Positions 197 to 4,718 of a DNA stretch of 10,440 nt are shown here, piece by piece (position 1 is the stretch's first letter; every line of letters starts with the position of its first letter). The notes under the pieces were generated by a model. That model worked only from the letters and a program-made list of their open reading frames with translations, searched no databases and had not been told where the DNA came from. The stretch covers positions 1-10,440 of the forward strand of contig CAYVGZ010000052.1 in assembly GCA_964450845.1 (NCBI GenBank), given 5' to 3'. This stretch comes from an uncultured Candidatus Bathyarchaeia archaeon (lineage in GTDB: Archaea > Thermoproteota > Bathyarchaeia > Bathyarchaeales > Bathycorpusculaceae). A program made the position numbers and the translations under genes.

Positions 197-556
197 TTGT
201 CGGAAACTAAAAAAGCTATAGTAGTTTTTAATTATGCAGAAAAGATAAAGTCGGATCTAATCTTGACCTTCGGCCTTTTGGATGTTTTAGATGGGATGCG
301 AGACGAGGAAGCCTCTGGCGCAGAGAAGCTTTTGGTTGCGTACTTTAACGCTTTGATTCGAGAAGTCAACATTGCAGCGAATGCTTCTAATGTTCAAGGT
401 TTTAAAAATGTCAGCGCAAAGCTTGACGAAGCCGTTGAGCAAATTAAAAAGCACAATTACGTCAACGTGATGAAACTTGTTTCAGAAGCAATATCCATCA
501 CAACCACCAATGGGAATAAAGCGGCTGAAACCTTGAAGGAGAAGGGTCTAATCTAG
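197..556 (+). CDS. Hypothetical protein, 119 aa, predicted all-alpha amphipathic helical bundle
   Basis: ORF with TTG start, SD and TATA upstream. It fills the space between the tRNA and ogg1, and its stop overlaps the ogg1 stop. No catalytic motif recognised. Confidence 0.75.
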   Translation: MSETKKAIVVFNYAEKIKSDLILTFGLLDVLDGMRDEEASGAEKLLVAYFNALIREVNIAANASNVQGFKNVSAKLDEAVEQIKKHNYVNVMKLVSEAISITTTNGNKAAETLKEKGLI

Positions 557-1425
557 CGTTTGGTTCGTTCGTAATGATACAAGTATTCTTGGGCGTAACC
601 AGCATAATCCCCGAAATATTTTCGCCCAAACAAATTCAACTTCTCGTATTGTGAGCTTGTAAGCGATTTTTTACCTGAAATTTTTATTGTAAACTCGTTC
701 GGAAAATAGCTTCCATAATACTTCAGAATAACGCGTTTTATCCATACATCCACTGGAAAAGCCTCAAGTTTTCCTAAAGAGAAAAGCAAAACACAATCAG
801 CAACCTTCAAACCCACCCCGGGAAAATTCAACAATTCTTCTCTCGCCTTCTCGTAAGACAACTTCCGTAAACTTTCAAGTTCAAAATCGTTTTCGTAAAC
901 CATTTTTGCAGTTTCAGACACATATTTTGCTCTGTAACCTAGGCCGCATTTGGCTAATTCTTCAGCAGTTGCTTTTGCGAGCGTCTGTGGTGTCGGAAAT
1001 GTGTAAAAATCGTATCCGTCAAAGCGTATTCTGTCTCCAAATTTCTTGGAAAGATTAGATAGCATTTGTTTTATTGCCTGAATGTTCTTGTACGTGGCGC
1101 AAATGTATGAGATTAGGCATTCCCAAGGGTCTTGACGAAGAATTCTCAAGCCTTTAAAGGCTTCAACAGCTTGCATTAAATGCGTATCTTTCCTAATTTG
1201 CGAAAAAATATTTAGCAAATCGTCGTCTAAGCCAAAATAATTTTTAACAAATCTTGCGTTTATGTTTTCAAATTCCAACCTGTTGCCAGTTTGGCGTATT
1301 TTAAAAACACGTTCTCCAACAATTCCACGCCACCACTCGTCTCGCTTGTTCCATCTAAAAGCTTGTCCACAACAGAGGGTGAAACCCAAATCAAATGGAA
1401 CTAAAGCATTCAATTGAATCTTCAT
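553..1425 (-). CDS. ogg1: 8-oxoguanine DNA glycosylase/AP lyase, OGG1 family (OGG_N plus HhH-GPD)
   Basis: N-terminal FDLGFTLCCGQAFRW, then LRILRQDPWECLISYICATYKNIQAIKQM, FPTPQTL and GLGYRAKY. HhH LLNFPGVGLKVADCVLLF carries the catalytic Lys and AFPVDVW the catalytic Asp. C-terminal AGYAQEYLY. Confidence 0.92.
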   Translation of the reverse strand: MKIQLNALVPFDLGFTLCCGQAFRWNKRDEWWRGIVGERVFKIRQTGNRLEFENINARFVKNYFGLDDDLLNIFSQIRKDTHLMQAVEAFKGLRILRQDPWECLISYICATYKNIQAIKQMLSNLSKKFGDRIRFDGYDFYTFPTPQTLAKATAEELAKCGLGYRAKYVSETAKMVYENDFELESLRKLSYEKAREELLNFPGVGLKVADCVLLFSLGKLEAFPVDVWIKRVILKYYGSYFPNEFTIKISGKKSLTSSQYEKLNLFGRKYFGDYAGYAQEYLYHYERTKR

Positions 1426-1435
1426 GGAGTTAGCC

Positions 1436-1609
1436 CTATTGATGCTTGAACAAAGCCGCTGTTTTAAGAATTTCCAAGTCTACATTCGATTCGTATTTTG
1501 CTAAGTGTAAACAAAGGTTGTAAACCCTTTCAATATGTTCTATATCATGATGCGAGCTAGAAAGCTCCTTTTCCACAATTTCCCTTATTTTCTGGAGTCT
1601 ATCGTCCAT
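1436..1609 (-). pseudogene. Truncated HD-domain phosphohydrolase (N-terminal fragment only)
   Basis: MDDRLQKIREIVEKELSSSHHDIEHIERVYNLCLHLAKYESNVDLEILKTAALF matches the HD-family N-terminus (H-x3-H-x2-RV ... xDxExLxxAALLHD). It stops (FKHQ*) where HD should follow. Likely ATG at 1609; the ORF track uses TTG 1624. Confidence 0.8.
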
Positions 1610-1643: not shown

Positions 1644-3854
1644 TTAAGCTTCGTCTATGAATTTTTCTGGCTTAGGGACTTCTGGTGGTAAGCCTCTTCT
1701 TCTGCGAATCTGTTCAATCACTTCAGCGGCAACGTTTTCAGGGATTTTCTCCCAAAGGGCGAAGGTGCACTGCCAGAAGGCATGACCTGAAGTTGCAGAA
1801 CGCATCTCTGCCGACAAGCCAAAAGTTTCTGTTACTGGAATGTGCCCGGCAATCACTGTTAATGCACCTCTGTGTTCAGTGGTCAATATTTTCCCGCGTC
1901 TGCGAGTTAAGATGTTTGAACATGCTCCGAACCATTGGTTTGAAACAGACACATTAATCTTGTAGATAGGTTCGAGTAGCACTGGTTTAGCTGTTAAGGC
2001 TGAGCCTAGAATTGCACGGCTTATGGCTCGCATGACCTGTTGTGGCTCCCTTTTTTTCGGATCATCGTGAATTTGAGCGTCCAACAGCTCGACTTTCACC
2101 CCTCTCAGAAGTTCTTCGCACAGAGGACCTGTCCTGCATGTCCAATGAAATCCTGAAATTATGTTGTCTTTCACTTCATGGAGATTTTGAATATTCTTCG
2201 TTAAATCGACAAGCATGTTTCTGTGCTCATCCAAGGCCCAAACATTTTTTGCTTCTTCCGTTGGAAATTTTGCCTTTTCCTGCAGCTTGTTCTCAATTTG
2301 CTTCTGTTCCATGTTCTCGGCAAGCTCACCATTTTCCATCAATTCTATAACTTTGTTTTCCAGCGGCTTAACTTGCACCCAGAACCTGTTATGCTTGTTT
2401 GGGCTTTTCGTCATGACAACTTTGCCTTGTTCCAAAACGCTTTCTCTGTAGGCCACAATGGGACTGGATGCGGCAAGTTGTATTCCACCACTATACTGTG
2501 TCAAAAACTTCATTGCAATCTCCAGGTGAAGTTCACCCATTCCGCTCAGCAAGTATTCTCCTGTTTCCTTGTCTATGGTAGTGACTAGGTTTGGGTCTTC
2601 CACCGATAGCCTATTCATAGCTTGCACTAGACGTGGCAAATCTTTAGGGTTCTTTGGGTCGACTGCTATCTTTATGACAGGCTCTGAAAGGTATTTTATG
2701 CGTTCAAAGGGAACAATAACATCTCTGTGCTTAATGTCAACGAGGGTTTCTCCTGCCCTTGCCATGTCGAGACCTGCCAAAGCGGCTATGTTGCCCGCGG
2801 TGATTCTGTTGACAGCCTCTCTGAAAGCGCCCATATACATGGAAACTTGCTTCACAGTGTACTCTTTCTCTACGCCAACTAGGTAGACTTTGTCTCCATC
2901 TTTTATTGAACCTGAAAAGAGTCTTCCAGTTGCGACGAGACCTGCCGTCGGGTCTGTTTGAACATTGGTTATGCACATGACTGTTGGTCCATCATCATCG
3001 CAGTTCAGCATTGCTTGGCCTATTTCCGATTCTATTTTTCCCTTCCAAATTTTTGGCAGCCGATACTTTTGGGCTTTGATTGGGTTTGGCGTGTTTTTTA
3101 CTGCCATGTCAAGTATTGCGCTGTGAAGAGGAAGCAACTGAGGAAGCGTTTGATGTTTGCCCCTAGCATAAGCATCTATAATATCGGTGAATTTTGTTCC
3201 CTTTTGTTGAGCTGTTCTTAGTGTGAAACCCCACCTATGAAGAGCTGAACCAAAAGCAACCGTTTCTTTCGCTGGGTCAACCTCCCATTTATCCTTGAAC
3301 TCAGGCTCTCCATAAATTTCAATCAGATTGTTGAAGTCACGGATTATGCGAATAAACTTATTCTGAATCTTGTCTGAAGTAAGCCTCAACTCCGTAATTA
3401 AACGGTCCACCTTGTTTACGAAAAGGACAGGTTTCACTCTTTCATCTAGGGCTTGGCGGGTAACAGTTTCCGTTTGAACCATGACCTCTTCTATTGCGTC
3501 AACAACTACCACGGCGCCGTCTATGGCACGTAAAGCCCTCGTCACTTTGCCTGCGAAGTCCACGTGACCCGGCGTGTCGATTAAGTTTATTACATAAGGA
3601 TGTCCGCTCACTTTGTGCAACAGCGATATGTTTGCTGTTTTTATGGTGATTCCGCGTTTTTGTTCTTCTTCCAAATAGTCAAGCGCTCTGGCTTGTCCTG
3701 CTATTTGTGGCGATAGTAATCCTGCTTCAGCAAGTAGCGAATCTGTCATTGTTGTTTTTCCATGGTCTATGTGGGCTATTATGCCTATGTTGCGTATGTT
3801 TTCTTTCTTGTCCATAAGCTTGAGAATTTCGGGTGTTTGCCTAAATTTTGGCAT
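1644..3854 (-). CDS. Archaeal elongation factor 2 paralog (aEF-2p-like), diphthamide His absent
   Basis: G1 AHIDHGKT, switch I RGITI, G3 DTPG, G4 NKVD and GSALHRWGF are intact, as are SGMGELHLE, SPNKHNRF and LLEPIY...RRRG. The domain IV tip reads HDDPKKREPQQVMRA versus canonical HEDAIHRGPAQIIPA. SD AGGAG at 3866-3862. Confidence 0.93.
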   Translation of the reverse strand: MPKFRQTPEILKLMDKKENIRNIGIIAHIDHGKTTMTDSLLAEAGLLSPQIAGQARALDYLEEEQKRGITIKTANISLLHKVSGHPYVINLIDTPGHVDFAGKVTRALRAIDGAVVVVDAIEEVMVQTETVTRQALDERVKPVLFVNKVDRLITELRLTSDKIQNKFIRIIRDFNNLIEIYGEPEFKDKWEVDPAKETVAFGSALHRWGFTLRTAQQKGTKFTDIIDAYARGKHQTLPQLLPLHSAILDMAVKNTPNPIKAQKYRLPKIWKGKIESEIGQAMLNCDDDGPTVMCITNVQTDPTAGLVATGRLFSGSIKDGDKVYLVGVEKEYTVKQVSMYMGAFREAVNRITAGNIAALAGLDMARAGETLVDIKHRDVIVPFERIKYLSEPVIKIAVDPKNPKDLPRLVQAMNRLSVEDPNLVTTIDKETGEYLLSGMGELHLEIAMKFLTQYSGGIQLAASSPIVAYRESVLEQGKVVMTKSPNKHNRFWVQVKPLENKVIELMENGELAENMEQKQIENKLQEKAKFPTEEAKNVWALDEHRNMLVDLTKNIQNLHEVKDNIISGFHWTCRTGPLCEELLRGVKVELLDAQIHDDPKKREPQQVMRAISRAILGSALTAKPVLLEPIYKINVSVSNQWFGACSNILTRRRGKILTTEHRGALTVIAGHIPVTETFGLSAEMRSATSGHAFWQCTFALWEKIPENVAAEVIEQIRRRRGLPPEVPKPEKFIDEA

Positions 3855-3959: not shown

Positions 3960-4718
3960 TTGAAGACTACGCTAGTGATAACCATTGAAAAATTAAGTGA
4001 AGAACCATATGCATCCATATTGTGCTATCCCAAACCAACTAGGGCAGAATTAAAGAAACGCTTAAGGGAACTGCGAAGGCTACGTGTTGAAACCTTAGAA
4101 TTCAGCGGAGAAAAGCAAGCGTTCAACATACCCGTTTTGGGTAAAGGATGTGTGGGCATAGTCACAATAGCGTACAGAAATGGAGAAAAAGTGGCTTTGA
4201 AAATTCGAAGGGTGGACGCTGGGCGTTCTGGAATGCGGCAGGAAGCGGAGATGCTTAAAAAAGCAAATTCAGTGGGTGTTGGACCGAGACTTTTGTGCGT
4301 AAGCAAAGATTTTCTTTTGATGCAGTTTGTCGATGGTGATTTGTTTCCAAAATGGGTTGAAAAGCGGAGAGGAAAAAAGCAGATAAGAAAAGTTTTGCGT
4401 GAGGTTTTGGAGCAGTGCTGGCGGCTGGACAAGGCTGGTTTAGATCATGGAGAACTGAGCTATGCTCCAAAACACATAATTATCGATAAGAGCGATGTGC
4501 CTTTCATAGTTGATTTTGAAACAGCTAGCTTAAATCGAAAACCGTCAAATGTTACTTCAATTTGCCAGTTTCTGTTCATCAGCGGTTTAGTCGCTAAACA
4601 AATGGCTGAAAAACTTGGCGGAAAAGACGAGAAGGCAATTATCGAGGCGTTGAGACGTTACAAAAGTGATAGAACGCGTGAAAATTTTGAAACTGTTTTG
4701 GAAGCTTGCAGTCTTTAA
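3960..4718 (+). CDS. Atypical RIO-like Ser/Thr protein kinase (archaeal COG2112-type)
   Basis: Gly-loop LGKGCVGIV, VALKIRR (beta3 Lys), EAEMLKKAN (alphaC Glu), VGPRLL, hinge LLMQFVDG, catalytic loop DHGELSYAPKHIII and IVDFE. GGAGG SD upstream. Confidence 0.88.
   Translation: MKTTLVITIEKLSEEPYASILCYPKPTRAELKKRLRELRRLRVETLEFSGEKQAFNIPVLGKGCVGIVTIAYRNGEKVALKIRRVDAGRSGMRQEAEMLKKANSVGVGPRLLCVSKDFLLMQFVDGDLFPKWVEKRRGKKQIRKVLREVLEQCWRLDKAGLDHGELSYAPKHIIIDKSDVPFIVDFETASLNRKPSNVTSICQFLFISGLVAKQMAEKLGGKDEKAIIEALRRYKSDRTRENFETVLEACSL

Follow-up and report, generated by a model that had tools for sequence, protein, structure and literature searches.

A His-less, tip-remodelled elongation factor 2 in Bathyarchaeia that is probably the original ortholog, displaced by a divergent second copy

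We analysed a gene for the elongation factor 2 of archaea (aEF-2) in a 10,440-nucleotide stretch of DNA from an uncultured Bathyarchaeia archaeon (contig CAYVGZ010000052.1), and this whole stretch is referred to as the window. The gene encodes a lysine, K601, at the position of the diphthamide acceptor histidine of EF-2. Our conclusion, to which we assign a probability of roughly 0.8, is that it represents a functional, His-less, tip-remodelled aEF-2 ortholog that was displaced by a divergent second EF-2 found on contig C32 of the same genome. The window gene's kind is designated type A, and the kind of the second copy type B. For a long time, diphthamide on EF-2 was regarded as a universal feature of archaea and eukaryotes, and EF-2 copies without the His offer one of the few natural ways to learn the purpose of diphthamide and of the domain IV tip. 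The features of the window gene are as follows.

1644..3854, minus strand: type A aEF-2 gene, protein P0001, 736 amino acids (aa), from the stop-free open reading frame (ORF) translation
3162..3803, minus strand: GTPase domain, aa 18-231, containing the motifs AHIDHGKT (G1), RGITI (switch I), DTPGH (G3), and NKVD (G4)
2388..2405, minus strand: loop 2, aa 484-489, SPNKHN, still canonical in the alignment and relaxed in relatives (H488 in 19/30)
1986..2312, minus strand: domain IV, Pfam EFG_IV match, aa 515-623, in which most changes at otherwise invariant positions fall
2175..2201, minus strand: loop 3, aa 552-560, TKNIQNLHE replacing TKG[IV]QYLRE, which packs against loop 1
2028..2069, minus strand: loop 1 (the diphthamide loop), HDDPKKREPQQVMR replacing HEDPVHRGPAQIMP
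2052..2054, minus strand: K601 codon AAA at the diphthamide acceptor His position, read as 2054-2052

Loop 1 of P0001 reads H596-D-D-P-K-K601-R-E-P-Q-Q-V-M-R609. The translation of 1644-3854 on the minus strand thus agrees with the earlier note on this DNA, which had claimed that the diphthamide His is replaced by Lys601 and HRG by KRE. The acceptor column contains His in 104/104 canonical sequences aligned, and the HDDPKKRE of P0001 departs from the HxDxxHRG pattern. Judged from these residues, the window protein cannot be a normal substrate of Dph2/Dph5 at the usual position. The role of loop 3 was taken from Narrowe et al. 2018 (PMC6143161). Loop 2 is lost in more eroded type A copies and is intact in the window gene.

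The changed tip is itself conserved among close relatives. In an alignment of 30 sequences around the window gene, referred to as the subclade, the consensus was H-[ED]-[ED]-P-K-x-R-E-P-x-Q-[IV]-M-R for loop 1 and T-K-N-V-[RQ]-N-L-H-E for loop 3. The conserved residues of loop 1 were K600, R602, E603, P604, Q606, M608, and R609, with R609 and P604 each present in 30/30 sequences and E603 in 28/30. N554 (canonical G) was found in 24/30 sequences and N557 (canonical Y) in 23/30, whereas residue 601 varied among Q, E, K, and H. The subclade has thus fixed a charged tip motif of its own, PKxREPxQ[IV]MR, and the alignment indicates that the tip was swapped for a different conserved tip and did not undergo random decay.

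The earlier note had raised the possibility that K601 is a sequencing error. If Lys601 were an assembly or sequencing artefact at the run of seven A residues (A7), the gene would be an ordinary EF-2, and the 601 codon does lie inside a homopolymer, CCG AAA AAA AGG (CCGAAAAAAAGG). However, a miscounted A run shifts the frame, whereas His to Lys (CAY to AAA) needs two base changes, which rules out a homopolymer error. Lys601 is also accompanied by G603E, P609R, G554N, and W530F. The metagenome protein P0002, which comes from an independent sample and is 91% identical to P0001, has the identical loop HDDPKKREPQQVMR, and 25 metagenome relatives (79-91% identical) share the changes around residue 601, namely the RE...MR motif. 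At the DNA level, the 601 codon of two relatives encodes E (P0004) and H (P0003), both within the ...REP.QVMR context. We rejected the artefact as extremely improbable. Programmed frameshifting at the A run was dropped as well, as relatives have other codons there.

Against the NCBIfam aEF-2 equivalog TIGR00490, P0001 scored 842.7 bits, above the cut-off of 738.45. Pfam returned six EF-G/EF-2 domain matches, including GTP_EFTU, D2, EFG_III, EFG_IV, and EFG_C, in the five-domain EF-2 architecture. The AlphaFold model had a predicted local distance difference test score (pLDDT) of 87.6 and archaeal EF-2 structures as top Foldseek folds, and the nearest solved relative by sequence was the aEF-2 of 8hl1, a crenarchaeal ribosome complex (E 3e-248). 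The GTPase motifs, described earlier as intact, were all located in P0001: AHIDHGKT at residues 27-34, RGITI at 67-71, DTPGH at 93-97, and NKVD at 147-150. In its sequence, the window protein keeps every feature needed for factor-site binding and GTP hydrolysis. The DAIEEVMVQTE motif, taken earlier as a further sign of an unusual gene, is present at aa 119-129, but it lacks that meaning: DAVEEVMVQTE is the norm among canonical type A proteins of the order, so only V121I is peculiar to the window gene. As a separate observation, the single EF-2 match of other Bathyarchaeia families spans one in-frame TAG/TAA (e.g., G146:C11, G182:C16, G242:C147, G289:C210, and G224:C3), and the window gene is without such an interruption.

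The window gene is not the only EF-2 of its genome (G000, a 1.64 Mb assembly, 93.5% complete). Both the second, canonical HRG copy and the dph genes for which the earlier note had looked ahead were found. The second copy, the type B protein P0122 (G000:C32:9290-11497, 738 aa), lies on another contig, is 47% identical to the window protein, and keeps the canonical tip, with the loop HEDPVHRGPAQ (HEDPVHRGPAQILP) and the loop 2 SPNKHS. Dph2 (312 bits) and Dph5 (299 bits) were both detected above their cut-offs, and of the two EF-2 proteins of G000, type B alone could be modified by the Dph2/Dph5 pathway. Dph6 (PF01902) was not found in the 93.5%-complete assembly, which is probably an assembly gap, since 59/61 genomes of the order have Dph6. 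In several genomes of families f2 and f4 (G118:C20, G196:C45, G178:C1, G106:C2, and G020:C5), Dph6 was observed 1-2 kb from type A, even where type A is His-less. Both types exceed the aEF-2 equivalog threshold and carry the same annotation, 'elongation factor EF-2'; EF-2 is therefore unsafe as a single-copy marker in this order.

The EF-2 search covered 301 genomes of the class, and type A and type B were counted in 101 sampled genomes of the order. Most of the 301 genomes carry one EF-2. In many families of the order, this sole EF-2 is the closest relative of P0001 (65-77% identical), and all loops read there were canonical, HEDPVHRGPAQ[IV]MP. The nearest relatives of P0001 in other genera, at 74-77% identity, likewise have canonical tips.

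One tree was built with IQ-TREE under LG+C20 with posterior mean site frequencies (PMSF) from a 97-row set, and another from a 38-row set, with supports of the Shimodaira-Hasegawa-like approximate likelihood ratio test (SH-aLRT) taken from short searches. In both trees, P0001 was nested in the canonical type A clade of Bathyarchaeia family f1 (SH-aLRT 97-99), and the 97-row tree placed type A where the order belongs inside Bathyarchaeia. The 24 eroded type A sequences formed one group within canonical f1 type A with a support of 99, and P0001 was among its shortest branches. The eroded copies of family f2 also group inside the family f1 clade, which may be long-branch attraction. The earlier note had implied a distinct paralog and had named branching within canonical aEF-2 as an outcome that would refute its reading; the latter is what the trees gave.

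The type B sequences formed a clade with 100% support and a stem of 0.46-0.7, outside all Thermoproteota sampled in the 97-row and 38-row trees. The members are 74-95% identical to each other, always have the canonical loop, and are confined to this order. No donor lineage for type B was found: the best match outside the order was 53% identical among 121 genomes of the phylum and 50% identical in a representative library of 1.84 billion proteins. In the approximately unbiased (AU) test on the 38-row set, a single clade of type A and type B was rejected (p = 0.0025), and a recent duplication within the order that yielded both types is rejected with it. At 23/217 conserved positions, spread over domains G to IV, type B differs from the consensus of the other archaeal EF-2 proteins; none of these differences touches the tip loops. 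At 14 of the 23, at least 80% of the type B sequences agree on the deviating residue (e.g., K72F, A74S, R133M, and R584Y). With domain IV set aside, the archaeal consensus is matched more closely by the window gene than by type B. We considered RQMT in switch I as a mark of type B as the odd copy and rejected it, as this motif is common in other Thermoproteota and so is not a defect.

The gene neighbourhood gave a second line of evidence on the origin of the window gene. Its two adjacent features are as follows.

553..1425, minus strand: ogg (8-oxoguanine DNA glycosylase), downstream neighbour with Pfam OGG_N and HhH-GPD, which marks positional orthology
3960..4718, plus strand: small RIO/Bud32-like kinase, 252 aa, divergently transcribed, Pfam RIO1 24.5 bits (cut-off 22)

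In family f1, type A adjoins ogg in canonical and eroded copies alike, and the RIO/Bud32-like kinase lies divergently on the other side of type A in most genomes. P0001 is the positional ortholog of canonical aEF-2, because the synteny of ogg, type A, and the RIO-like gene is common to the canonical copies. Two metagenome contigs of the window's genus have the same gene order from purE to ogg as the window. Three genomes (G145, G256, and G277) show the arrangement ogg <- A <-|-> B -> kinase, with type B between type A and the kinase. By its nesting in the canonical type A clade and the shared synteny, the window gene is the vertically inherited bathyarchaeal aEF-2, that is, the original ortholog, and the His-bearing type B is the outlier. 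Membership in a separate clade of aEF-2 paralogs (aEF-2p) was rejected by the trees and the synteny.

The neighbours in the window are ogg, the RIO/Bud32-like kinase, a purP-like gene, an M55 peptidase, purC, and purE. The earlier statement that no ribosomal-protein genes flank the gene is true for the window, but it has no diagnostic value, as the canonical EF-2 copies of the lineage are likewise without ribosomal-protein neighbours. We gave no weight to the 'RIO kinase' as functional evidence: the RIO match of the 252-aa protein is marginal, the NCBIfam Bud32 and RIO models fall far below their cut-offs, and the gene is downstream of type B where A and B are adjacent, although its position is conserved across the family. 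The 218-nucleotide gap between the EF-2 stop and ogg contains a truncated HD-domain remnant (window 1451-1609, minus strand), which corresponds to the first 53 residues, 87% identical, of a 225-aa gene that is whole at the same place in L148, L149, L074, and L011.

Type B was found in 38/101 sampled genomes of the order. The combinations of the two types were as follows.

Type B and type A: 26 genomes; acceptor His lost in 18, kept in 4, loop unread in 4
Type B, type A absent: 12 genomes, including 6 with a completeness of 92% or more
No type B, type A loop read: 25 genomes, all 25 canonical
No type B, only eroded type A: 6 genomes, tip eroded

Erosion of the type A tip is seen almost only where type B is present, and once type B is present, type A is retained, eroded at the tip, or lost. 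Among the four type A copies that keep the His beside type B, those of G145 and G118 are canonical, that of G323 reads HRD, and that of G163 reads HRN; two fully canonical EF-2 copies are kept in G145, G256, and G277. The copies form a graded series from canonical through HRN/HRD to loss of the His, loss of the tip, and loss of the gene. Seemingly, the window gene lost its His because the divergent type B now keeps the tip. Type B is very probably a competent translocase, since it is the only EF-2 found in the 12 genomes without type A, including the six that are at least 92% complete.

To locate the changes in the protein, we defined 185 universal aEF-2 positions, each of which has the same residue, conserved to at least 90%, in canonical type A, in type B, and in other archaea. 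Of these, 176/185 are kept in P0001, distributed as 73/74 in the G domain, 38/38 in domain II, 22/24 in domain III, 24/30 in domain IV (counted over aa 466-624), and 19/19 in domain V. The nine changes are V121I, T395K, E399D, W530F, G554N, E597D, H601K, G603E, and P609R, and the six from W530F to P609R fall in domain IV. For the most eroded type A copies, the count was made over the sites that are conserved both among canonical type A sequences and among other archaea; they keep 82/83 in the G domain, 46/47 in domain II, 31/32 in domain III, and 19/19 in domain V, and 25/36 in domain IV. The ratio of nonsynonymous to synonymous substitution rates (dN/dS, or omega) between the window gene and two relatives was 0.11-0.13 at a dS of about 0.4. 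For comparison, omega was 0.076 between the type B of G000 and its nearest relative, 0.009-0.061 in other type B pairs, and 0.045-0.055 in canonical type A pairs. These patterns show that type A lost constraint on the three tip loops of domain IV, the diphthamide His included, and that its GTPase domain and domains II, III, and V are still held by purifying selection.

Several results weigh against our conclusion. The AU test did not reject type B joined to the whole Bathyarchaeia clade (p = 0.10), and the deep placement of type B may be partly a long-branch effect; type B may therefore have an old bathyarchaeal origin. Twelve genomes do without type A, so that its function must be dispensable or coverable by type B. 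When both types are compared in the same genome pairs, eroded type A has a dN 3-9 times as large as type B, which would fit slow decay too. Five assemblies (92-97% complete; family-model search) have eroded type A only and no type B. In one genome, G178 (95% complete, 20 contigs), type B, Dph2, and Dph5 were not found, and the sole EF-2 is an eroded type A with the loop AREKEARGYAQITP; if this absence is real, the organism translates with a His-less EF-2, the eroded type A being its sole translocase and the pathway being lost. Finally, loop 2 (SPNKHN), H596, and R602 are still canonical in the window protein, and yeast is viable on eEF2 H699N or H699I alleles, so that substitution of the His alone is not lethal (PMC3585130). 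Translocase activity may therefore persist in the window protein.

If type A were a redundant copy that has been decaying slowly since the takeover by type B, with the tip going first as the most mutation-sensitive part, this would account for the genomes that lost type A entirely, for the higher dN of eroded type A, and for its omega, which is raised 2-10 fold. The free variation of residue 601 among close relatives points the same way. However, the ORF is intact in every eroded type A copy read (24 in the tree and 25 metagenome proteins), and an omega of about 0.12 is far from neutral. Even in the oldest copies, the G domain and domains II and V are spared by the changes, and the new residues K600, E603, R609, N554, and N557 are themselves conserved. 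Because of the low dN/dS, the domain-specific conservation, and the conserved new tip, slow decay is the less likely course, and we regard it as improbable.

The window protein could also be a still working translocase, a diphthamide-independent EF-2 beside type B that is used, for example, under certain conditions or with altered frame-keeping, and whose tip tunes translocation. The score above the curated aEF-2 equivalog cut-off, the 176/185 invariant positions kept, the canonical residues left at the tip, and the yeast alleles all fit this possibility, as do the assemblies with eroded type A only, G178 without Dph2 and Dph5 among them, and the three genomes with two fully canonical copies. 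On the other hand, loops 1 and 3 were jointly replaced by a different conserved motif and not merely freed at the His. Deeper in the clade, the tip becomes unrecognisable while the other domains stay conserved, which is hard to square with contacts in the decoding centre. Additionally, four of the five assemblies with type A only keep Dph2 and Dph5, which need a His-bearing EF-2; type B is therefore likely to be unassembled or unbinned there. We take a working translocase seriously but consider it unlikely.

If the window gene is the displaced ortholog, its protein would still bind the factor site of the ribosome and hydrolyse GTP there, and would no longer probe the decoding centre like a diphthamide-bearing translocase. 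It was probably retained for, or became specialised in, an activity of aEF-2 other than translocation. For such an activity, the best precedent is the release of aIF6 from 50S subunits, which Sulfolobus aEF-2 performs in a GTP-dependent manner (PMC8024482, Lo Gullo et al. 2021); a second documented role of this kind is the presence of aEF-2 on a 50S dimer, as in PDB 9ou7, which was among the structure matches. Binding of idle or hibernating ribosomes is an alternative candidate role.

Compared with canonical archaeal EF-2 (8hl1, 5h7j, 6u45, and 6q2d), the window protein has the same five-domain fold and G motifs and scores above the equivalog cut-off, but it replaces the diphthamide His, the HRG...P context, and loop 3. 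The ribosomal protection proteins Tet(M)/Tet(O) and other EF-G paralogs resemble it in combining a conserved GTPase with a remodelled domain IV tip and a non-translocation function at the same site, an analogy that Narrowe 2018 drew for His-less EF-2 (PMC6143161). They differ in being bacterial and far more distant; the tet_protect model gave 193 bits against a cut-off of 775, and the window gene has no antibiotic link.

EFL1/Ria1 is likewise a GTPase that derives from EF-2 and has no diphthamide His; in eukaryotes it acts with SBDS to release eIF6, and it is a precedent for separating translocation from the release of the 60S/50S anti-association factor. Kinship with the window protein is not specific, as 5anb_K matches P0001 at E 1e-76 compared with 3e-248 for the aEF-2 of 8hl1. 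The EFL1 chain has 1120 aa, whereas the window protein has 736 aa and is colinear with aEF-2. In contrast to the EFL1 system, Sulfolobus SBDS inhibits the release of aIF6 and does not assist it (PMC8024482). The analogy is a functional one, with an EFL1-like role of the window protein as a candidate. By the same analogy, the type A/type B pair might be an independent and recent replay of the eukaryotic EF-2/EFL1 split, which we propose tentatively and as an unlikely outcome. Translocation on the one hand, and aIF6 release or another function on idle ribosomes on the other, both carried out by one aEF-2 in other archaea, would then be divided between two genes. In such a split, the original ortholog would have turned into the specialist without a tip, and a divergent copy, either incoming or very old, would have become the diphthamide-bearing translocase. 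If true, living intermediates from canonical to fully eroded tips would be open to experiment.

The aEF-2p of Asgard and Korarchaeota, proposed as a non-translocase GTPase (Narrowe et al. 2018, PMC6143161), is likewise a second EF-2 with intact G1-G5 motifs, a degenerate HxDxxHRG, and no acceptor His. The earlier note was right that His-less EF-2 copies are a reported kind. The window gene shares the presence of a His-bearing EF-2 elsewhere in the genome and the conservation of G1-G5 but not of HxDxxHRG, of which H596, D598, and R602 remain. However, aEF-2p genomes are without dph genes, whereas the window genome has Dph2 and Dph5; the SPHKHN-type loop 2 is lost in aEF-2p, whereas SPNKHN is intact in the window gene; and aEF-2p forms its own long-branched clades, whereas the window gene nests in the canonical clade. 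In a 40-row tree, which included the Odin and Hel His-less EF-2, no Korarchaeota sequence, and no Asgard canonical EF-2, the supported sets around P0001 (3, 4, and 8 rows; 98-99) held family f1 type A only, and the Odin and Hel sequences attached away from P0001 on branches of 1.3-1.5, which does not indicate common descent. In that tree, P0143 (Odinarchaeum) and P0144 (Helarchaeota) attached inside the Bathyarchaeia clade (a set of 19 rows, SH-aLRT 100), a placement that is untrustworthy given their branches of 1.3-1.5 and deviant composition. At 77% identity to its canonical ortholog, the window copy is far younger than aEF-2p. It is unusually young, with nine changes at invariant sites, it stands within a graded series, and it coexists with an intact dph pathway; the question of what an EF-2 does when freed at its tip can thus be put more cleanly here than with the highly divergent aEF-2p of Asgard.

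The most similar case is that of the 'potential aEF-2 paralogs' in Bathyarchaeota RBG_13_46_16b and SG8-32-3 (Narrowe et al. 2018, GBE 10:2380, PMC6143161), a likeness that rests on their published description and not on direct sequence comparison. These genomes also have two EF-2 genes. One copy, which groups with bathyarchaeal EF-2 of the TACK type (Thaumarchaeota, Aigarchaeota, Crenarchaeota, and Korarchaeota), is without key domain IV residues, and the other, in which the residues are canonical, has a deep position outside TACK, Asgard, and eukaryotes, which our trees reproduce. No later paper on this bathyarchaeal case was found in text searches of the literature. Narrowe 2018 had two sequences per kind and called the pattern puzzling, whereas about 100 genomes were read here. 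As a result, the pattern left open in 2018 becomes clearer: the Bathyarchaeia 'paralog' is the original gene, and the 'canonical' copy is the outlier. Relative to that work, what is new is the direction of the displacement, with the His-less copy as both positional and phylogenetic ortholog, the graded series, in which erosion tracks type B and all stages exist, and the domain-specific selection on the eroding copy.

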